Positions 2,908-63,163 of a stretch of 64,000 nt of DNA are shown piece after piece (the first letter of the stretch is position 1; each line of letters starts with the position of its first letter). The notes beneath the pieces were generated by a model. The model saw only the letters and a program-made list of their open reading frames with translations. It did not search any database and was not told where the DNA came from. The stretch spans positions 3,010-67,009 of the forward strand of contig JAAYHB010000011.1 of the NCBI GenBank assembly GCA_012727435.1, read 5' to 3'. This stretch comes from Clostridiales bacterium. GTDB lineage: Bacteria; Bacillota; Clostridia; Oscillospirales; CAG-272. The translations under genes and the position numbers were made by a program.

Positions 2908-4455
2908 TCAGAAGCTCATGTTTTTCATGAACAGCTCGGAGAAGCGCGGCAGGGTGTTGAGGTCGAGAACCTCGCTGTGCCGGGCTATATCAGAGATTTC
3001 GTCAACCGCCGCACTGTCGCACAGGCAGGCCTCGGCGCCGGCCAGCGAAGTATTGCCGACAACGCAGAACTTTTCAGGATCAGTATCCGGCAGAAGGCCG
3101 GTGCGCCTGGCGCTTGTGGTATTCAGATAATAACCCAGCCCGCCGGCGATGTAGATTTTTTCGATATCGTCAGTACTGACCCCTGCATGCTCAAGAAGGG
3201 CAGAAAATCCCGAGAATATCGCGCTTTTTGCAAGCTGAAACTCCCGCACATCGCGCTGAGTAAGCCCGATGTGCGGTATTTTATCAAATTGCAGCAGGCG
3301 GCCATTTGATTCGCTCACATGCCGGCCCCGCGCTTCTGGTGTGCCGCAGAGCGAAAAGTCGCCGTCCTCCATATATCCGGTCTCATCAATTGTGCCGGTA
3401 TCAAGCAGTGCCGCCACAAGGTCAACCAGCCCGCTGCCGCAGATGCCAACCGGGGGCAGGTCCCCTATGGTGCTGTAGGTGAGAATCCCGGGGAAATCTT
3501 TTAAGAGGTTGACACGGCTCACGCCACCGGGTATCCCGCCGGTACCGCAGGAGATATTGGCGCCCTCAAGCGCCGGCCCCGCCGCGGCAGAGGCCGCAAT
3601 AAGCCTCATACCCCCTGCTCTGCCGGTGAAGAGGACAATTTCGCCGTTCGTGCCGATGTCCATGAGCACCGAAGGCCGGCTGTGACGTGTCATCCGTGAG
3701 ACATATACCCCGCCGGTGATGTCGCTCCCGATGTATGCCGAAGCCGAGGGGAGCAGAATCACCCGCTCAACCGGCAACCCTAAAGAGGCGCCGTCATAAT
3801 CGCGCCGCTCCGTAAAGACCGGGGTGAAGGGATAGGTCCCGATACCTTCGGGCGAAATACCGCAGAATATATGTAGCATTGTGGTATTGCCGGCGACGCA
3901 AAGACAATCAGGTCTGGCATCCGGATATGCGGAACCGAAATCGCGGATAATTTCTGCGGCCTTCTCGCGCACAAGGCGGCAAAGTTTGTCGAGTCCCCCC
4001 TCCTTGCAGGCCACAATGCGGCTTATGACATCGGCGCCATAGCTGCGCTGAGGGTTAAGACACGACCGGGTTGCGAGAACCTCCCCGGTTGCCCGGTTGA
4101 CCAGCGAGGCGGCCAGCGTGGTGGTGCCGATATCAAGCGCGACACTATAGCCCGCCTCCTTGCCTGCTGCCTGCCTTGCGGCGTGAGTTGTCAGTCCGCT
4201 GCCGCCGTTGTCGGGTAGTGAAATTTCAGCGCCGGCCGGGGTACACACTGCCCGGCAGGCCAGTATCTGCCCGTGCCCGTCGGGCGGGTATTCACTTCCG
4301 TCATAATACAGAAATCTCCCGCTTTTTACATTCACCCGGCATTTGCCGCAGGTCCCCCGCCCGCCGCAGTCGGCGGGAATTTCATAGCCCTGCAAGGTCA
4401 GCCAGTCAATCAGCCTTTTCCCCGCGGCTCCGGGCGGAATATGTATATTTGCCAT
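2908..4455 (-). CDS. ASKHA-family reductive activator of corrinoid proteins (RACo/RamA-like, DUF4445) with N-terminal 2Fe-2S domain
   Basis: CGGRGTCGKC...LAC ferredoxin motif; ALDIGTTT, MDIGTNGE, GICGSG, AGGLG motifs. Confidence 0.9.
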   Translation of the reverse strand: MANIHIPPGAAGKRLIDWLTLQGYEIPADCGGRGTCGKCRVNVKSGRFLYYDGSEYPPDGHGQILACRAVCTPAGAEISLPDNGGSGLTTHAARQAAGKEAGYSVALDIGTTTLAASLVNRATGEVLATRSCLNPQRSYGADVISRIVACKEGGLDKLCRLVREKAAEIIRDFGSAYPDARPDCLCVAGNTTMLHIFCGISPEGIGTYPFTPVFTERRDYDGASLGLPVERVILLPSASAYIGSDITGGVYVSRMTRHSRPSVLMDIGTNGEIVLFTGRAGGMRLIAASAAAGPALEGANISCGTGGIPGGVSRVNLLKDFPGILTYSTIGDLPPVGICGSGLVDLVAALLDTGTIDETGYMEDGDFSLCGTPEARGRHVSESNGRLLQFDKIPHIGLTQRDVREFQLAKSAIFSGFSALLEHAGVSTDDIEKIYIAGGLGYYLNTTSARRTGLLPDTDPEKFCVVGNTSLAGAEACLCDSAAVDEISDIARHSEVLDLNTLPRFSELFMKNMSF

Positions 4456-54758: not shown

Positions 54759-56132
54759 ATGGCAGGAGAGAAAAGAAACTATTCTGAAATTACGCCCGAG
54801 ATAAAGAAACTGAGCGAGCTTTGCCTTCGCGACAGCTACATCGATCCGTCAATGTATCAGAAATACAATGTCTTTCGCGGGCTCCGCAATCTTGAGGGCA
54901 AGGGTGTTCTGACCGGACTTACCGAAATATCCGAGGTGTATGCGAAAAAGGTTGTGGGGGATAAGGAAATACCCTGCCGCGGCAAGCTCTATTACTGCGG
55001 ATATGATATAGAGGACCTGGTCTCCGGGTTTATGAAGGAGAAGCGCTTCGGCTTCGAGGAGATAACCTACCTTTTGCTTTTCGGCGAGTTGCCGAATGCT
55101 GCTGAGCTGGAGGAGTTTTGCCGGATTCTGTCAGGTTACCGCTCGCTGCCCACCTCTTTTGTGCGCGACCTTATCATGAAGGCGCCGAGCGAGAACGTGA
55201 TGAATTCTATGGCGCGCAGCGTGCTGACCATGTATTCCTACGACCGCAATCCCGAGGACACCTCGATACCGAATGTGCTGCGCCAGTGCCTGCAGCTTAT
55301 TGCAGTATTCCCGATGCTGGCGATATACGGCTATCAGGCTTATGACTATTACATCGACGGCAGCCGGAGCTTCTTTATCCATGAGCCCGACCCGGCGCTC
55401 TCGACCGCCGAGAACATACTTCACATGCTACGCATTGACAAAAAATACACAAAGCTTGAGGCCACTGTGCTCGATTTGGCTTTGGTGCTGCACGCCGAAC
55501 ACGGCGGCGGCAACAACTCGACCTTCACGACCCGGGTGGTTTCCTCCTCGGGAACCGATACATATTCTGCCATCGCCGCTGCCCTCGGCTCGCTCAAAGG
55601 CCCGAAGCACGGAGGGGCGAACATCAAGGTTGTACAGATGTTTGACGACATCATGAAAAACGTAAGAAACTGGGAGGATTGCGAGGAGATTGAAAACTAC
55701 CTGCGGAAAATACTGAACAAGGAGGCCTTTGATAGAAGCGGTCTGATTTACGGTATCGGGCACGCCGTGTATTCGGTATCCGACCCGAGGGCGGTTATCT
55801 TCCGCCGCTTTGTCAGGAAACTGTCGCGCGAAAAGGGAAGGCAGGAGGAGTTCAAACTCTATGCCGCGGTCGAAAAGATTGCGCCGAAACTCATCGCCAG
55901 CGAGCGGAAGATGTATAAAGGGGTCAGCGCCAATGTGGACTTCTTCTCGGGATTCGTGTATGATATGCTCGGGCTTCCCGTCGAGCTGTATACCCCGATT
56001 TTTGCAATCGCCCGAGTGGCGGGCTGGAGCGCCCACCGGCTCGAAGAGCTGATTAACGGAAGCAAAATCATCCGCCCGTCCTACATGAACGTGCACCCGA
56101 GAAGGGAATATATACCGATGTCGCAGCGTTGA
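54759..56132 (+). CDS. gltA: Citrate synthase (citrate/2-methylcitrate synthase family)
   Basis: LHAEHGGGNNSTF, GPKHGGAN, GIGHAVY..SDPR, ANVDFFSG, ARVAGW motifs. Confidence 0.93.
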   Translation: MAGEKRNYSEITPEIKKLSELCLRDSYIDPSMYQKYNVFRGLRNLEGKGVLTGLTEISEVYAKKVVGDKEIPCRGKLYYCGYDIEDLVSGFMKEKRFGFEEITYLLLFGELPNAAELEEFCRILSGYRSLPTSFVRDLIMKAPSENVMNSMARSVLTMYSYDRNPEDTSIPNVLRQCLQLIAVFPMLAIYGYQAYDYYIDGSRSFFIHEPDPALSTAENILHMLRIDKKYTKLEATVLDLALVLHAEHGGGNNSTFTTRVVSSSGTDTYSAIAAALGSLKGPKHGGANIKVVQMFDDIMKNVRNWEDCEEIENYLRKILNKEAFDRSGLIYGIGHAVYSVSDPRAVIFRRFVRKLSREKGRQEEFKLYAAVEKIAPKLIASERKMYKGVSANVDFFSGFVYDMLGLPVELYTPIFAIARVAGWSAHRLEELINGSKIIRPSYMNVHPRREYIPMSQR

Positions 56133-56142
56133 GTGTGCTGCT

Positions 56143-56292
56143 CCGGGGGTGCTGCCCCCGAGCCTCGCTTTCTTTTCGGGGCTCCGCCCCGCACCCTGCT
56201 CAAGGGGCTTTTTTGAAAAAAGCCCCTTGAGAATCCCCAAAAACTTCCCAACCTATCGCAAATAAAGTAGCGCGGGAGCCCATATCCCGCGC
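56143..56292 (-). repeat. ~150-bp palindromic intergenic repeat, copy 1
   Basis: Reverse complement of 62007-62160; core palindrome CTCAAGGGGCTTTTTT-G-AAAAAAGCCCCTTGAG at 56199-56231. Confidence 0.9.
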
Positions 56293-56375
56293 TTTTCTCT
56301 ACATATAGCCCGTTCATTTTCACGGGAAAGCCTTTTGGCATAGGTAAAGCATCACTGCTGAGCAAAAAAACGGCG

Positions 56376-56410
56376 GGGCTGACGCAAATCAACCCGATTT
56401 GCGTCAGCCC
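56376..56410. terminator. Bidirectional terminator (same stem family as 34675-34704)
   Basis: Perfect 15-bp stem GGGCTGACGCAAATC/GATTTGCGTCAGCCC. Confidence 0.8.
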
Positions 56411-56430
56411 TGGATTTTTGCATGGAGCAA

Positions 56431-58323
56431 TCAGCCGTGATAAGCGCCCGGCAGAATCTCGTCGCCGTATTTTTCCTTGGCGGCGGCAATCTTTGCAATG
56501 GCCGCATCCCAGTAGTCGAATATTTCTTTCGGCGTGTTGGGGTCTGTCTTGGCATAGAATGCCTTGGTACGCTCAAGTTTGGCTATCCACTTGGAGCAGC
56601 GGAAGGTGAAGAGGTAATCGTATGTCTCCTTGGAGAAGTCCTCATTCAGATACTTTTTGAAGAGCATCACAAGGTCTTCATATTTCGGAATCCGGCCGGT
56701 GGGGGTTTCATAGGCGTCAAACTCGCCGTGAATCCTGCCCTCGGCCCAGTGCAGCCACACCTTCTTGGCAAGCTTGCTGGTTATAAATTTCCCGTCACGG
56801 CCGCGCATGAAGTAATTTGTGCTGAAAATCTTCGGAACCTCGCGCATCCCATCGACGAATCTTATATTGTTGATTGTATACTGTCCGAGCGGGTATGATA
56901 CAAAGTCTATGTTGGCCATGGGGTTCGAGACCCGCACGCCCTCGGCGCCGAGCGTGGCACTGGTGGTCTCGGACTCAAGGGTGCAGGCCTTGAGGAGAAT
57001 GCCGTCCTTCCAGTTTGGCGACTCCTCAATCGGGACGGTGGTGTCGCTGTCGCGGCCGCCGTAGAGTATGCCCTCGACCTTCACGCCGGTTTTGGATTCG
57101 AAGCCTTCTTTATCTATGTTGTCAAGGTAATCAAGCCGCATGGTGTAGCGGGCATTGGGATGGGCGATGTCGACCACATTGCCGTCCGAATCCTTGACGC
57201 CCCGGTGCCACTTGCCGAAGTGGTTGCGGCCCTCGTCGGGCGCCTCGACGCCCATCCCCAGCCAGTAGGGCATACCGTCGGGTCCTACCAGCACGTTCGA
57301 GAAAATGACCTCCTGATCCTTCATCAGGTTCTTGAAAATCACCGGGTCGTCCTTGGCGTTGACGTCCTTGATGATGCCGAACATCCCGTTTTCGACGTTG
57401 ACCGCGCGGAACTCGCCGTTTATGTTGCGGAAGTATGCTATGTCGTCGCCGACAATCAGCTCGCCTGGAATCATGGCGGTTGAGGTCTTGCCGCAGGCCG
57501 AGGGGTATGCGCCGCAGAAATAGGTCTTGCGGTTCTTTTCCTCGTTGACCGCTGCCATGATGAACATATGCTCGCAGAGCCAGCCTTCCTGCCCCGACTT
57601 GTTGATGGCAAGACGCATGGAGTGCTTCTTCAGGCCTACCGAGTTGCCGGCGTACTGGTTGTTCATCGAATAGACAATGTTGTTCTGGGTGTCGATGTAG
57701 ACCCTTCTCTTGTCAAGGTCAACAGAGTTGTTGTTCTCATCGAGCCGGCCGGCCGAGTGGATGAAGCGGAAGAAGTCGTCCTTCTCGGAGTCCTTCATCT
57801 TCAGAAAATGGTTGTATGCCGAACGGTAGAGGATATACTCCGAGTGAGCGACATACCAGCTGTCGGTAAACTGAACACAGGGTATGGTGAAGGGACTCTC
57901 TGTCGGACCTTCGGCGAAAAAGAGCACGACTGCCTGCTTGCCCCTCATAATGCCGGCGGAAATGTCGAGGATTTCCTTTATGCCGGTTTCATACTCGATT
58001 GAGTTGAGGGCCTTCATGCGCTCAAGGTTTTCTTTATATACAAGATACTTTGTGGCATTTTTGTCGCGGCCCTGGTCGTAGTAGCTGTCCCAGTGGACTG
58101 TATGGTTCGGATAGCGCATGGGCCACTCCTCGCCGAGTGCCAGCGCCTGCTGCCGTACATACTTCATGTCTTCTTCGCTGTCGGTGCAGACATATATCGA
58201 GTCGGGGTCGCAATGCTCGGCGAAGAAGCCTACAAATTCCATGACCTTCGGGTTTTTCAGTGCGGCAAGCCTTTCAAAGCTCTCGGCGCTCATTTTGCTT
58301 TTCAGCAGCTTTTCATATTTCAT
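56431..58323 (-). CDS. pckG: Phosphoenolpyruvate carboxykinase (GTP)
   Basis: YAGNSVGLKK, WLCEHM, YPSACGKTS, VGDDIA, HPNARY, YGGR motifs. Confidence 0.95.
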   Translation of the reverse strand: MKYEKLLKSKMSAESFERLAALKNPKVMEFVGFFAEHCDPDSIYVCTDSEEDMKYVRQQALALGEEWPMRYPNHTVHWDSYYDQGRDKNATKYLVYKENLERMKALNSIEYETGIKEILDISAGIMRGKQAVVLFFAEGPTESPFTIPCVQFTDSWYVAHSEYILYRSAYNHFLKMKDSEKDDFFRFIHSAGRLDENNNSVDLDKRRVYIDTQNNIVYSMNNQYAGNSVGLKKHSMRLAINKSGQEGWLCEHMFIMAAVNEEKNRKTYFCGAYPSACGKTSTAMIPGELIVGDDIAYFRNINGEFRAVNVENGMFGIIKDVNAKDDPVIFKNLMKDQEVIFSNVLVGPDGMPYWLGMGVEAPDEGRNHFGKWHRGVKDSDGNVVDIAHPNARYTMRLDYLDNIDKEGFESKTGVKVEGILYGGRDSDTTVPIEESPNWKDGILLKACTLESETTSATLGAEGVRVSNPMANIDFVSYPLGQYTINNIRFVDGMREVPKIFSTNYFMRGRDGKFITSKLAKKVWLHWAEGRIHGEFDAYETPTGRIPKYEDLVMLFKKYLNEDFSKETYDYLFTFRCSKWIAKLERTKAFYAKTDPNTPKEIFDYWDAAIAKIAAAKEKYGDEILPGAYHG

Positions 58324-58552
58324 CACAGATACTCCTTTGGTTTTTTACCTGTATAAATTATACATTCCGGCGGTGTGTCTTGTCAATTATTATAATATGA
58401 GAAAAGCCGGCTGTTTGGGTGCCATTATTTATGGAAAATGAATATTAAAATTAAAATTCCTGCAAAACTTCAGGTTGTCGGGCAGCTTTTTGCGCTAATT
58501 TCAATTATATCATGAAAAATAAGCATGCTAAAGCTGCACGAAGTGAATCGGG

Positions 58553-59749
58553 CTAAAAGTCGGGAACATCACTTCGCGGCAGGAAATCGCCGAAGATATT
58601 TGAGAACAGCTCGCGACAGTAGGCATATGAAAAGAGAGGGTCGCGCTCGCGCACGAAGGTATTGGCGACCGCCAGCGCTTCGGAGTAATCCGAGAAGGGG
58701 TATACGGTTATCCCGGCATAGCCGCCTGTCAGGTGGGTGACAAGCGGGATGACGCAGGCGTCCTTGATAGACACAAACCCCTCCTCGTCCTTTTCGATTG
58801 TAACCTTGGCCATGCCTCCGAGCATCCGGCTGCAGACCCCTGCCCCGCGCTCGGCGGTAGAATTGACAAAATTGCCGAGCGAAAAATAGACCAGCATTTT
58901 GTGTCCGTCCTCTCTTGAATACCATTTTACCGGCTGGATTACATGCGGGTGTGTGCCGATGACAAGATCGGCGCCGCACTCAAGAAAAATCCGGCACCAG
59001 TAATCCTGTTCCTCCGAGGGCTTGTGCATGTATTCGGTTCCCCAGTGCGGGCAGATGACAACAAAGTCGGCTATCTCCCGCGCCCGCGCAGTGTCGGCTC
59101 TGACCTTTTCTTCATCGAGCAGGCTGACGATGTAGGGCATGCCGTCGGGCAGGGGTATCTCGTTTGTGCCGTAAGTATAGTTCAGCACCGCAACCCTGAT
59201 GCCCGAACGCTCGACAATCAAGATTTCCGAAGCCTCCTTCTCGCACAGCGCGGTGCCGGCAATTTTGACTTCGGGGAAATGCCCGGCCCAGTATTCGCGG
59301 CAGAGGCGCACGCCCTCGGCGCCCCGGTCGAGCGTGTGGTTGGTTGCCTGAAGCACAATGTCAAAGCCGGCTTTTGCCACCGCGTCGGCGACCTCTTGCG
59401 GGGCGTTGAACATGGGGTAGCCCGACAGCCCCAGTTTCTCCCCGGCGAGCGGGGTCTCCTGATTGATTATGGCTATGTCGGCCGCCGATATTTCGCTTTT
59501 TACGCAGGCGAAAAGGTGGTCGAAGTTATAGCTGCCGTCGGGGGCTTTGCCGCTCTGCTGTACCAGCCGGTGCATTAGCAGGTCTCCGACCATGACAATT
59601 GTGACCTGTTCGTCGTTAAACTCATCTGCCGGCATCTCGGTTCTAATCGTTTCGGGCCGGGGCGCCGGGAGGCTGTTTGCGCCGGCGGCACAGGCGCAAA
59701 GGCAGGCCACAAGAAGTATCATGCAAAAAAGCTTTATTACGGCTTTCAT
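58553..59749 (-). CDS. CapA/PgsA-family metallophosphoesterase lipoprotein
   Basis: VGDLLMH, NQETP, ATNH.LD, PHWG.EY, GTHPHV, SLGNF motifs. Confidence 0.9.
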   Translation of the reverse strand: MKAVIKLFCMILLVACLCACAAGANSLPAPRPETIRTEMPADEFNDEQVTIVMVGDLLMHRLVQQSGKAPDGSYNFDHLFACVKSEISAADIAIINQETPLAGEKLGLSGYPMFNAPQEVADAVAKAGFDIVLQATNHTLDRGAEGVRLCREYWAGHFPEVKIAGTALCEKEASEILIVERSGIRVAVLNYTYGTNEIPLPDGMPYIVSLLDEEKVRADTARAREIADFVVICPHWGTEYMHKPSEEQDYWCRIFLECGADLVIGTHPHVIQPVKWYSREDGHKMLVYFSLGNFVNSTAERGAGVCSRMLGGMAKVTIEKDEEGFVSIKDACVIPLVTHLTGGYAGITVYPFSDYSEALAVANTFVRERDPLFSYAYCRELFSNIFGDFLPRSDVPDF

Positions 59750-59882
59750 TTTTCACTCCGTTTTTGTCGTTGATAATAGTATCCTCAAGCGTATAATATT
59801 CCGGCTAAGTGAAATAATTATACTGAATTATTTACGGGAAAAGATGTGTGCATTTTCGGCGCGGTACTAAAGAGGATGAAAA

Positions 59883-60332
59883 ATGAATATCAGCAAAGAG
59901 AATTATAGAAAATATGCCGATGCGCGGGCGCCCAAATCGCCCGTGGTAAAAAACTGCATCAAGGCCTTTCTTGTCGGCGGGCTTATTTGCCTTTTCGGAG
60001 AGGCGCTCATTCAGATGTTCACCGGCCTGTGCGGGGTGTCGCGCGACGACGCTGGCACACTGAGCGCGGTTACCCTGATTTTTATCACCGTATTACTTAC
60101 CGGGCTCGGAATATTTGATAAGATTGCCAAATTCGGCGGCGCCGGAACGCTTGTGCCCATCACAGGCTTTGCCAACGCCGTTGTTTCCCCGGCAATAGAC
60201 AGCTTTACCGAAGGTCCGCTGATTGGCGTGGGCGCGAAGATATTCACGGTTGCCGGCCCGGTACTGCTTTACGGCATGCTGTCAGGGGCGATTTACGGGG
60301 TTATCCTTTGGATATGCGGCCTTTTTAAATAA
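59883..60332 (+). CDS. spoVAC: Stage V sporulation protein AC
   Basis: AFLVGG.IC, GAGTLVPITGFAN, KIFTVAGPV motifs. Confidence 0.92.
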   Translation: MNISKENYRKYADARAPKSPVVKNCIKAFLVGGLICLFGEALIQMFTGLCGVSRDDAGTLSAVTLIFITVLLTGLGIFDKIAKFGGAGTLVPITGFANAVVSPAIDSFTEGPLIGVGAKIFTVAGPVLLYGMLSGAIYGVILWICGLFK

Positions 60333-60378
60333 AAAACGGCCGCTTTTGCAGCCGTCAGTTATAAATATGAGTTTTTTA

Positions 60379-60453
60379 AGTTTTTTTGAAGATTCTTAAG
60401 GAACCTTTTTTATTAAAAAAGCTCCTCATGCAGGGTGCGGGGCGGAGCCCCGC
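60379..60453 (+). repeat. Degenerate partial copy 3 of the palindromic repeat
   Basis: AGTTTTTTTGAAGATTCTTAAGGAACCTTTTTTATTAAAAAAGCTCCTCATGCAGGGTGCGGGGCGGAGCCCCGC aligns with the core of copy 2. Confidence 0.75.
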
Positions 60454-61130
60454 TTTTTCAATGTCTGGCCGGCGCCGTGGATTGCATCAAAATCCCTTGC
60501 GAAGGCTTCGACTGCGGCGTTAATGCTCGGCATACCGAGGGCGGCCTTTATAATATCCACGCCGACGGTAGCCCCTTTTGCGCCACTTGCAAAGGCGCTT
60601 GTCACCTGGGATATGTTTCTGAAGCTTGCCGCCAGGATTTTCGACCGGCTGTTCATGCCGTCAAGAAAGCTGCGTATCTCGCTGATGACAACGAACGGGT
60701 CTATGCAGTTGTTCTCCATGCGGTTGACGTAGATGGCTATATATTCGGCGCCCGCAAGCCCTGCAAGTATGCCCTGCATGGTGGTGTATATCGCGGTGGC
60801 GGTCACCTTCACGCCTTCATTCACAAGCGCTTTTATGGCAGGGAGCCCGGCGGCGCTGACCGGGATTTTAACGTATATATCAGAACCCAGCTTGTCGAGT
60901 ATGAAATGCGCCTCGTCGATTATTTCCTGAGTGGTGGTGGAGACGGTCTGGACATGCAGGCTGCGCTGGTTCCCGCACAGCTTTTTTATTTCGGCCAGCC
61001 GGGCGTAGACGTCAATATTCCCCTCTTTTCTGAGTATGCTGGGATTTGTGGTCACCCCGCTAATAGGCCATGCGGCGAGACCTTCCCTTATCTCGTTTAT
61101 ATTTGCGGTATCGAGCATCAGTTCGTACAT
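60426..61130 (-). CDS. Transaldolase-family protein, fructose-6-phosphate aldolase type
   Basis: LDTAN, GVTTNP, YVKIP (Schiff-base Lys), HVQ and IYVNR (FSA-type Gln/Tyr), ASFR motifs. Confidence 0.88.
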   Translation of the reverse strand: MYELMLDTANINEIREGLAAWPISGVTTNPSILRKEGNIDVYARLAEIKKLCGNQRSLHVQTVSTTTQEIIDEAHFILDKLGSDIYVKIPVSAAGLPAIKALVNEGVKVTATAIYTTMQGILAGLAGAEYIAIYVNRMENNCIDPFVVISEIRSFLDGMNSRSKILAASFRNISQVTSAFASGAKGATVGVDIIKAALGMPSINAAVEAFARDFDAIHGAGQTLKKRGSAPHPA

Positions 61131-61364
61131 TTTACAGATTCCTCTTTCAGCAAAGCTTTCTTGATATTTTGCCGCCGACATTGTATCACACATCGATGTA
61201 AAGTTCAATGTCTTAACTGGCTAAAAATAGCCTGTCCCGGGCAGCTTTTATTGTTAATTTTTCGTCAAATTGCGCCGCGCCGGCAGGGAATAATATCGGC
61301 ATATCGGAGTATAATAAAAGACGAGAAACCAAATGCCGCCTCTGGCGGCGGAAAGGATACTGAA

Positions 61365-61817
61365 ATGCAGTTTAACCAAAAAGAAACCGAATTACTCAAG
61401 GACCTCAAGGGTCAGGAAAAGCTTTGTGCGGACAAGTATTCAAAGCACGCGCAGGCGGCGTCCGACCCGCAGCTTAAGGACCTGCTCGGAAGTATTGCAA
61501 AGGTTGAATACGGCCATTACGATACGATAACCCAGATTGAGAGCGGCAACGTCCCGCAGCCCGGGCAGGGCAGCCAGCAGCAGCCGACATTCAAGGCGGT
61601 TTACGGCACGACCGAGGACGAAAAGAAGAAAAACGACTGCTATATCTGCACCGACCTGTTGTCGATGGAAAAGCATGTCTCGCATATGTACGATACCTGC
61701 ATTTTCGAGTTCAGGGATCAGAATGTCCGGAACATGCTAAACCATATTCAAAAAGAAGAACAGAACCACGGCAAGATGATATACGACTATATGCAGACAA
61801 ACAACATGTATTCTTAA
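61365..61817 (+). CDS. Ferritin-like spore coat protein (Coat F-related)
   Basis: AAAGGA RBS; QE.LC..KY...DPQLK.L...E..H; DLLSMEKH..HIQKEEQNHG. Confidence 0.75.
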   Translation: MQFNQKETELLKDLKGQEKLCADKYSKHAQAASDPQLKDLLGSIAKVEYGHYDTITQIESGNVPQPGQGSQQQPTFKAVYGTTEDEKKKNDCYICTDLLSMEKHVSHMYDTCIFEFRDQNVRNMLNHIQKEEQNHGKMIYDYMQTNNMYS

Positions 61818-61836
61818 TGTGCAAGCCTTTTGCATA

Positions 61837-61862
61837 AAGCCCGTCCGGGTCCGGACGGGCTT
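61837..61862 (+). terminator. Terminator hairpin
   Basis: AAGCCCGTCCGG-GT-CCGGACGGGCTT. Confidence 0.65.
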
Positions 61863-62006
61863 GTGCTGTTTTTTAGAGTCTGCATATATGGGTTGGTGTC
61901 CTTCCTGTTTGCGGGCACTCTTATTGTTTCTCGTAGGGGCGACCTGTGGTCGCCCGCGGGTATCCCGCGCCCCTCTCCAGGTCTGCCAGCAGACTTATGG
62001 CAGCAT

Positions 62007-62160
62007 AGCGCGGGACATGGGGCCTGCGCTACTTCATTTGCGATATAGGTTGGAAAGTTTTTGGGGATTCTCAAGGGGCTTTTTTTAAAAAAGCCCCTTG
62101 AGCGGGGTGTGGGGCGGAGCCCCGCAAGTAAAGCGGGGGCATGGGGGCAGAGCTCCCCCG
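62007..62160 (+). repeat. ~150-bp palindromic intergenic repeat, copy 2
   Basis: Core palindrome at 62070-62102; GGGGCGGAGCCCC and GGGGGCAGAGCTCCCCC hairpins. Confidence 0.9.
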
Positions 62161-62164
62161 TAGA

Positions 62165-62201
62165 AAAACCGTGGTGTGGGGTTTCCCCACACCACGGTTT
62201 T
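62165..62201. terminator. Perfect 17-bp hairpin, probable spoVT terminator
   Basis: AAAACCGTGGTGTGGGG-TTT-CCCCACACCACGGTTTT. Confidence 0.8.
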
Positions 62202-62214
62202 ACCGGCCGTTTTT

Positions 62215-62772
62215 TCAGCTCTCAAGCTGCTTGCCGAGGAAGCCTGCGGCGGTCTGAATCAGTTTCGACTCGACCTCGCTGCTGATAATGTCGCGCGGAC
62301 GCTCACCGTTTACATCTGCGACCGAGGCCACGCAGCCGATCAGATCCCCTTCGCTCAAAATCGGCATGGCGCAGCTGATATAATAGTTGTCGCTGTCGGC
62401 AATGACCGGAAGTCTCTCGGCTCCTTCGCGCCACATGTAGAGCGCGCGGCTCTCGATAATGGCCTCCATTTCGTCCGACAGCTGTTTGTCGTTGAACTCC
62501 TTCTTGGGAACACCCGCAGAAGCGATAACGGCATCCCTGTCACATATAACCACCGCAAGTGAGCAGGTTTTATGGAGGGTGTCGGCATACTGGGCGGCAA
62601 AGGCGGCCAGCTCGCCTATTGGCGAGTACTTCTTGAATATTACCTCCCCTTCGCGGTCGGTATATATTTCAAGCGGATCGCCCTCACGTATCCTCATTGT
62701 GCGGCGGATTTCCTTGGGGATGACTACACGTCCCAGATCATCAATGCGACGAACAATTCCTGTTGCTTTCAT
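62215..62772 (-). CDS. spoVT: Stage V sporulation protein T (AbrB-type regulator)
   Basis: MKATGIVRRIDDLGRVVIPKEIRRT...KKYSPIGEL...AAGFLGKQLE. Confidence 0.97.
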   Translation of the reverse strand: MKATGIVRRIDDLGRVVIPKEIRRTMRIREGDPLEIYTDREGEVIFKKYSPIGELAAFAAQYADTLHKTCSLAVVICDRDAVIASAGVPKKEFNDKQLSDEMEAIIESRALYMWREGAERLPVIADSDNYYISCAMPILSEGDLIGCVASVADVNGERPRDIISSEVESKLIQTAAGFLGKQLES

Positions 62773-62893
62773 ACATTTTTGACCATTCCTTTCTTGCATC
62801 TCGGGCTTTGGCACCACGGCCGGGCAGACTGCGGCGGTAAACCCGGCGCGGGGCTGTTGCCCATGTCTTTTAACGCGGTTCTGCTTGCTTTGT

Positions 62894-62922
62894 TAGTGTT
62901 TGTATATAACGGGGATTTATGC
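62894..62922 (-). promoter_or_regulatory. Possible sigmaG-type promoter for spoVT
   Basis: Minus strand GCATA-17-AACACTA; spoVT is sigmaG-dependent in Bacillus. Confidence 0.35.
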
Positions 62923-63163
62923 GCCCGGGCAAAAAATTTAAGTGCCTTATATGCCGTATCGTGTCAGAAAAAGTCATTTTTCTCGCCGCGCGCCGCATAA
63001 CACAGTCAAGCGTCTCCCCAAAAGCAGCAAGCGCCCGCAGCCGTTCTGTTCATTTTCTAACATCATTATTGCACGGTACCGCCGGTCTTTATGCGCCTGT
63101 CCGGCATTTGTGATATATATGATGTGTCTGACGTCGTTATTTTTGTGAAATGATTTTTCGGTA

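Follow-up and report, generated by a model that had tools for sequence, protein, structure and literature searches.

Results

Three copies of a hairpin repeat at convergent gene junctions

The 64,000-nucleotide (nt) stretch of Clostridiales DNA analyzed here (the window; positions 3010-67009 of contig C26 in genome G000, an assembly of 1.78 Mb in 27 contigs that is 94% complete) contains three copies of a multi-hairpin repeat element, each lying where two genes converge. The gene pairs, as identified by Pfam, are citrate synthase/PEPCK_GTP (pckG) at copy 1, SpoVAC/TAL_FSA (an aldolase) at copy 3, and Coat_F/SpoVT at copy 2; both the gene names and the convergent arrangement given in the original prediction, which was made from the letters of the window, hold. 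Copies 1 and 2, which had been described as near-identical inverted repeats, are reverse complements with 86% identity over 158 nt, including one 94-nt stretch that is 91% complementary without gaps; the longest perfect identity between them is 31 nt. Each contains the expected 33-bp palindrome, CTCAAGGGGC-T6/7-N-A6-GCCCCTTGAG, at 56199-56231 and 62070-62102, respectively, together with GGGGCGGAGCCCC, a GGGGGC..CCCCC hairpin, and a GCGCGGG..CCCGCGC hairpin.

The window trio represents 3 of about 131 copies, found on nearly all contigs, so that a repeat family first noticed at three junctions proves to be genome-wide. The count was obtained by three rounds of nhmmer (E<1e-6, non-overlapping), and the 131 copies make up 0.9% of the 1.78 Mb. 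Their architecture is modular. Module A is an optional 5' GC hairpin followed by a T-rich spacer. Module B, the core, is present in almost every copy and consists, in order, of GTTTTTGRGGATT, the palindrome, CGGGG, and a GGGGCNGNGCCCC hairpin with a variable paired base; the palindrome is perfect over 15-16 bp and follows the pattern CTYAAG-NNN-C-T5-6 / A5-6-G-N'N'N'-CTTRAG. Module C comprises 0-4 extra GC hairpins of the same type as that of the core. The combinations AB (35 copies), ABC (34), B (32), and BC (18) occur, and the individual hairpin units span 13-33 nt. In the window, the copies and their parts are as follows.

56134-56299, minus strand: copy 1, full-length A-B-C (nhmmer E 5e-42, model positions 9-176), between the citrate synthase stop (56132) and the shared pckG terminator
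56144-56160, minus strand: copy 1 module C hairpin (CGGGGG-N5-CCCCCG)
56178-56190, minus strand: copy 1 core GC hairpin (GGGGCGGAGCCCC unit)
56199-56231, no strand: copy 1 core palindrome, stem 15 bp, loop 3 nt
56270-56292, minus strand: copy 1 module A hairpin, GCGCGGGA-N7-TCCCGCGC, with T-rich tails on both strands
56374-56412, no strand: conserved bidirectional intrinsic terminator outside the element, for pckG and, after read-through of copy 1, for citrate synthase
60370-60454, plus strand: copy 3, core (B) only, with decayed palindrome (nhmmer E 1e-16, model positions 55-134)
60426-60455, minus strand: last nine codons and stop of the aldolase (TAL_FSA), from copy 3 (tail KRGSAPHPA*)
61993-62167, plus strand: copy 2, full-length A-B-C (nhmmer E 6.5e-48, model positions 1-175), between the Coat_F terminator (61837-61862) and the spoVT terminator (about 62166-62215)
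62007-62030, plus strand: copy 2 module A hairpin
62070-62102, no strand: copy 2 core palindrome
62111-62123, plus strand: copy 2 core GC hairpin (GGGGCGGAGCCCC)
62143-62159, plus strand: copy 2 module C hairpin (GGGGGCAGAGCTCCCCC)

Copies 2 and 3 are located between both flanking genes' own terminators, and copy 1 between the citrate synthase stop and the bidirectional terminator. Copy 3, as had been proposed, is a degraded copy that supplies the end of the aldolase: the open reading frame (60426-61208, minus strand) stops inside it. The encoded protein ends in ...GAGQTLKKRGSAPHPA in the window and in ...GAGQTMMTIAK in the sister species G004; copy 3 is now the 3' end of the aldolase gene.

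Covariation of the hairpins

When folded as single strands, the copies form four separate hairpins with z-scores of -3.1 to -6.9, and none of 200 shuffled sequences was as stable. On an alignment of 60 diverse cores, 94.5% of the stem cells are paired versus 83.3% in shuffles, and 17 of 20 stem pairs have changed on both sides, a number reached by 0 of 500 shuffles. The covariation score of this alignment is 0.340, compared with 0.127 in shuffles and at most 0.143 in slid controls. Among 275 copies, 3-4 Watson-Crick types occur at each of the three inner palindrome pairs and at the base of the GC hairpin, and in other lineages the palindrome apex has covaried as well, with TTCTT..AAGAA or CCTCTT..AGAGG, for example, replacing T6..A6. 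There are no terminal inverted repeats: the two ends do not pair with each other in the folds, and the consensus ends are unrelated to each other. The core palindrome is followed by CGGGG and the core GC hairpin by an A-rich stretch, neither with a T-tract; T-rich tails are seen only at module A and at some of the GC hairpins.

A multi-hairpin fold with covariation is also what one would see if the copies were structured RNA genes or motifs (small RNA, ribozyme, or element of a 3' untranslated region) acting as RNA, an alternative that the original prediction had raised. Palindrome mismatches in the 275 copies are divided equally between G:T (about 66) and A:C (about 62), and because the two are equally common, neither strand, and hence no RNA, is favored. 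An Rfam scan of window positions 55500-63000 at E<=1 returned only chance miRNA matches to the palindrome, at about 24 bits against gathering thresholds of 80-94. Copies also lie in both orientations to the flanking genes, several are beyond both terminators, and orthologous copies decay, with no conservation above background (see below). We therefore regard an RNA function as very unlikely.

Copies in other arrangements were also observed. In the cultured Acutalibacter caecimuris M00118, the core is repeated four times in tandem at one locus (L048 6344-6819) and three times at another (L043 3913-4252), successive copies recurring every 125 nt or so; this genome has one tandem core pair only (C12:363520-363672); head-to-head core pairs occur in some other genomes. 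In addition, two distant lineages (horse-gut loci such as L017 about 2380-2420 and L053 about 90-130, and L006 about 4355-4385) repeatedly have, as a further module beside the repeat, a hairpin of the form AAAAAGGTGGG..CCCACC(TTTTT) that resembles a terminator on one strand or on both. Terminator hairpins may travel with the mosaic.

Position relative to genes

The convergent setting seen in the window is general. Using genes from our own simple codon-usage caller (1459 genes, 87% coding), we found a copy at 60 of 196 convergent junctions (31%), 54 of 1044 tandem junctions (5%), and 2 of 192 divergent junctions (1%), corresponding to an odds ratio of 8.1 for convergent versus tandem (p 2.5e-22) and 0.19 for divergent versus tandem (p 0.007). 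The position bias that three junctions had hinted at is thereby established genome-wide. Nearly all copies (127 of 131) are extragenic, and the remaining 4 overlap gene ends. Orientation, by comparison, is neutral, with no preference relative to genes at tandem junctions (26 versus 31) and no bias relative to the local gene-strand majority, used as a proxy for replication (25 versus 32, p 0.43).

So strict a bias toward gene 3' ends raises the alternative of a host-selected cis-element, whether a terminator or insulator, an mRNA 3'-end stabilizer, or a site for a chromosome-organizing protein. The very stable, covarying hairpins, the invariant unpaired motifs beside them (GTTTTTGRGGATT and CGGGG), and the T-rich tails of module A and some GC hairpins would all suit such a role. 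So would the terminator content of the junctions: a terminator-like hairpin lies inside the element at 31 of 59 element-bearing convergent junctions, and terminators on both strands outside the element are present at 27% of these junctions versus 40% of those without an element. The other spacer at convergent junctions measures 110 nt with the element versus 184 nt without, and at least one terminator outside the element is still found at 58% of the element-bearing ones. Arguing the other way, no T-tract follows either the main palindrome or the GC hairpin of the core, window copies 2 and 3 sit between the genes' own terminators, and the two orientations are equally frequent. Co-option as terminators may have occurred at a minority of sites.

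Distribution and age

To survey other genomes we used a structure-agnostic pattern of the core, applied to one genome per species, which catches 29 of the 131 copies here. It identified more than 109 loci, nearly all in metagenome-assembled genomes (MAGs) of gut or digester Clostridia, Eubacteriales, and Oscillospiraceae, in addition to the cultured A. caecimuris M00118. Within the order, the pattern was present in 7 of 401 genomes and 6 of 179 genera, with zero control matches, and within the genus only in the close relatives G003 (DURE01, a digester MAG) and G004 (JBMNUI01). No copies were found in the phage, plasmid, and viral collections (50,697 phage records, 72,556 plasmids, and 2.9 million viral contigs).

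The age of the copies differs among carriers. The median nearest-neighbor identity of cores within a genome is 0.86 here versus 0.97 in a horse-gut MAG, whose 81 exact matches to the core pattern fall into 3-4 subfamilies with identical palindromes, and similar runs of identical copies are present in the JAZRIF and rabbit MAGs. From these within-genome identities it follows that amplification has been recent in some lineages, and that the family here is old.

Four pattern matches were located in the complete chromosome of Desulfovibrio caledoniensis (CP195092, 63% GC). The copy that we inspected (L058 4450-4518, at about 2.052 Mb) has an intact core with its own compensated apex and lies between convergent EAL/GGDEF and ABC-F genes, which are of housekeeping type. 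The Desulfovibrio copies suggest transfer across phyla. A literature search for the motifs and for REP-like (repetitive extragenic palindromic) repeats in Clostridia yielded no description of the family, which appears to be undescribed in the published literature searched.

Orthologous sites in sister species

Loci of G003 and G004 amounting to about 191 kb were compared with their counterparts here. At most copy sites both species have a copy in unchanged orientation, as G003 does at the site of copy 1. The orthologous copies are 84.8% (G004) and 85.5% (G003) identical to those here and contain many indels, values that are close to the genome-wide averages of about 90% and 82-85%, respectively, and thus indicate no extra conservation in place. 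Differences between species are mostly gains or losses of entire modules. At the copy 2 site, G004 has another variant (AAACCCC..GGGGTTT versus AAGGGGC..GCCCCTT here) between flanks that are about 95% identical, and G003 has the GC-hairpin part only. In 2 of 15 orthologous pairs, the inner triplet of the palindrome has been exchanged whole on both arms; such swaps point to overwriting from other copies rather than to stepwise mutation.

The copy 3 site is empty in G003, where a single shared bidirectional terminator is found; in this genome and in G004, the element separates the stem of that terminator from its T-tract. The G004 copy is intact and is followed by a 47-nt terminator stretch that has been lost from the window. 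No target duplication is evident at this empty/filled pair or at the L086 site, at both of which extra sequence blurs the ends.

These comparisons bear directly on a host-selected cis-element at gene 3' ends. Orthologous copies are conserved at the genome average, copy 3 is decayed here and absent in G003, copy 2 has lost modules in G003, and the family is wholly absent from most relatives in the genus, family, and order. On this evidence, maintenance by the host as a regulatory or structural element is unlikely.

Rearrangements at element copies

Gene order in this genome and in G003 and G004 differs at 17 raw synteny breaks, of which 3 are contig-end joins, 3 are small indels, and 11 are real. 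In 8 of the 11 real breaks, the sister genome has a copy where the order is broken, against about 26% expected (p 0.0016), at loci that had been chosen for containing a copy; for 4 of the real breaks, both of the ends mapped in this genome coincide with copies. A segment of roughly 0.4 kb with a small gene is inverted in G003 relative to G004 while both flanks remain collinear, and an inverted pair of copies is present at its two junctions in both species.

The original prediction had proposed that the inverted pair of copies 1 and 2 might allow inversion of the 5.7-kb block between them. Inversion by a copy pair stands in principle, as the flipped 0.4-kb segment illustrates, but not for this block, for which the reference arrangement at the copy 2 junction is kept in the three conspecific contigs found and in G004. 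Three conspecific contigs from independent metagenomes, 99-99.9% identical to the window, are collinear from pckG or capA across copies 3 and 2 into spoVT, and the gene order in G004 is the same as in the window. A programmed invertible switch of the pckG-capA-spoVAC-aldolase-Coat_F block could draw on the 86% identity and 31-nt perfect match of the inverted pair and on the occurrence of such inversions elsewhere, but this pair is just two among the roughly 131 copies scattered over the genome, no recombinase gene lies nearby, and the arrangement over the copy 2 junction is kept in all of the contigs just described. We consider a switch extremely unlikely; recombination between copies 1 and 2 is possible but should be rare because their perfect identity extends over at most 31 nt.

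A different, overlapping inversion distinguishes G003; it covers about 8 kb, takes in spoVAC to spoVT, and extends into the next contig:

59883 to window end, continuing into C10:1-3589: segment inverted in G003 (loci L005, L122, L126)

An element copy is present at one junction of this inversion and 944 nt of extra DNA with a MerR/TipAS regulator at the other. A recombinase at the junction was ruled out as the inserted gene, which is the MerR/TipAS regulator. The metagenome contig FZPS01000135, which is independent, has the junction as in G003. Exact-protein look-ups of SpoVT on other contigs found nothing. The end of C26 (window coordinate 64221) is joined directly to the start of C10 in G004, G003, and two conspecific metagenomes; since relatives' contigs join their ends, C26 and C10 are adjacent in the chromosome.

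Search for a mobilizing enzyme

A cognate HUH transposase of the REP-associated tyrosine transposase (RAYT) type, which the original prediction would have led one to look for, was found neither here nor in the lineages with the most recent amplification. The Y1/RAYT/IS200 domain (PF01797) was not detected in this genome or in 6 of 12 carriers, including the genomes with bursts of young copies and Acutalibacter; matches in the remaining carriers are weak, partial, or pseudogenes. Neither the repeat nor its GC hairpin occurs within 1.5 kb of any carrier Y1 match; in Desulfovibrio, the RAYT has hairpins of its own at its flanks, of an unrelated TAGGGGGAC type. In G004 we observed the degenerate remnant of a Y1 transposase gene (L120 1501-1746, G004:C55), which scores 19.9 bits and contains two stops. 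The stretch that contains it is 540 nt in G004 versus 193 nt here (C12:6435-6628), and the remnant has therefore been deleted in this genome.

The consensus sequences of modules A, B, and C have no GTAG head at the 5' foot. A separate family of GTAG-headed REP hairpins, TAGGGGCGAYC-N3-GRTCGCCC, is present in 7 copies, one of them in the window:

61933-61955, plus strand: GTAG-headed REP hairpin (GTAGGGGCGACC-TGT-GGTCGCCC), 38 nt upstream of copy 2

The others are at C2:40607, C12:104013, C23:48170, C21:53792, C4:111727, and C24:44368. In five of the seven cases, module A of an element or its remnant follows collinearly after 14-40 nt, which offers a thin lead toward a RAYT link.

One could accordingly propose a true REP/REPIN system whose RAYT (a Y1 HUH transposase) has been lost from the lineage, leaving the copies as fossils. 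The hairpin units, high copy number, extragenic placement, and mosaic clusters would fit, as would the GTAG-headed family beside module A in 5 of 7 cases and the Y1 remnant of G004. This account does not fit the hairpins themselves, which have no GTAG head, nor the absence of a Y1 gene from the genomes with the youngest copies (horse MAG G042 and JAZRIF G049) and from the cultured Acutalibacter; and those Y1 genes that carriers do possess have no repeat within 1.5 kb or, in Desulfovibrio, have TAGGGGGAC-type hairpins of their own. We consider a lost RAYT quite unlikely.

Other candidates were rejected or not found. The presence of IS110 DEDD and IS91 Y2 transposases is unrelated to carriers or to burst genomes. 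An IS110-type transposase fragment (37.9 bits) at a contig end, C14:1-129, is the only signal resembling an insertion sequence (IS) found in the assembly. Among 1452 predicted proteins of this genome there is one pair of paralogues only. Genes bracketed by copies here include none that is recombinase-like; they are ordinary by eye, no domain scan having been made. In the loci fetched from a burst genome, the 5' module is always directly followed by the core. Integron attC sites were dismissed, given that the copies are dispersed among housekeeping genes in both orientations with no one-way cassette array.

Comparison with known repeat systems

REP sequences and the bacterial interspersed mosaic elements (BIMEs) that they form in E. 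coli and other Proteobacteria are short GC-rich extragenic hairpins present in more than 100 copies per genome, arranged in mosaics, located at gene 3' ends and convergent junctions in both orientations, and used as recombination substrates (for REP/BIME/RAYT, see PMC2817692). The family described here is similar in having more than 100 short extragenic hairpin copies, mosaics, a bias to gene 3' ends, and recombination breakpoints. Unlike in REP/BIME elements with RAYT, a GTAG head is missing from the family's own hairpins, and the most active genomes have no Y1 transposase cognate to them. Also unlike them, its core of about 80 nt combines an AT-tipped 33-bp perfect palindrome with a GC hairpin, and its successive GC hairpins are in tandem direct orientation rather than alternating.

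BOX elements of Streptococcus pneumoniae (boxA-boxB(n)-boxC) are modular, form stable folds, and occur in about 100-130 intergenic copies; no transposase is known for them. The A-B-C modularity in a Firmicute, with one module present in variable number, is shared, a resemblance in architecture alone. Here, unlike in BOX, it is the GC hairpin on the 3' side that is repeated, the 5' module is lineage-dependent, and the hosts are gut and digester Clostridia and one Desulfovibrio. Miniature inverted-repeat transposable elements (MITEs), such as the Correia elements of Neisseria, RUP, and ERIC/IRU, can carry terminators and alter neighboring genes. The present family is likewise small, non-coding, dispersed, structured, and intergenic, but it lacks terminal inverted repeats, and neither a target-site duplication nor a parent IS with matching ends was seen. 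Intrinsic (Rho-independent) terminators differ from the core hairpins in that the latter have no immediate T-tract.

Discussion

Taken with these comparisons, the family is probably a large, modular, non-coding hairpin repeat of the REP/BIME or BOX type that is selfish, non-autonomous, and quiescent in this genome. The REP/MITE-like reading first given to the window copies is retained insofar as they are a non-autonomous dispersed repeat biased to gene 3' ends; assignment to the classical MITEs is not, in view of the missing terminal inverted repeats and parent IS.

Several points weigh against a selfish repeat. Searches for Y1/RAYT, IS110, IS91, and a parent element disclosed no mobilizing enzyme, and no autonomous parent was found among this genome's proteins or in the burst-genome loci. 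The G003 and G004 comparisons provided no clean filled-versus-empty site with defined ends or a target duplication. The lower frequency of independent terminators at element-bearing convergent junctions leaves room for a host function. The breakpoint statistic derives from loci selected for a copy, and nearly all of the genomes are MAGs, in which IS copies are prone to be lost and misjoins can arise at repeats.

How such a repeat moves, and why it is found where it is, we infer from the patterns above. The hairpins would be selfish, non-autonomous DNA that is copied in bursts by an enzyme acting in trans. Because the enzyme, as we propose, would require the hairpins together with the invariant motifs that flank them, new copies would always arrive with intact, covarying stems. 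Copies would survive only downstream of genes, either because insertion elsewhere does harm or because the element targets terminator hairpins. The copies here are decaying, losing and gaining modules and occasionally being overwritten from other copies. As side effects they provide dispersed homology for ectopic recombination, seen as breakpoints and small inversions, and sometimes add terminator-like hairpins.

A more specific version of this proposal is tentative, and we hold it to be doubtful: the family might be the substrate of a hairpin-recognizing copying system other than Y1/RAYT, IS110, or IS91, one that still operates in some Clostridia of horse, rabbit, and ruminant guts and can cross phyla to reach Desulfovibrio. 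The unpaired invariant motifs would then be its recognition sites, and the 3-bp complementary segments would vary freely, only their shape being read.

Small hairpin repeats of comparable kind are well studied in Proteobacteria and streptococci and hardly at all in the uncultured Clostridia, which are dominant in animal guts and digesters. Here such a family makes up about 1% of a genome, interrupts assemblies, and lies at most of the breakpoints observed where sister species differ in gene order. The aldolase tail shows that it is able to alter the ends of genes, and in some lineages it amplifies without a recognizable transposase. A model of the family would avert spurious open reading frame calls and explain many MAG contig ends, and the cultured carrier A. 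caecimuris makes both the copying mechanism and any effects on termination or mRNA stability experimentally approachable.

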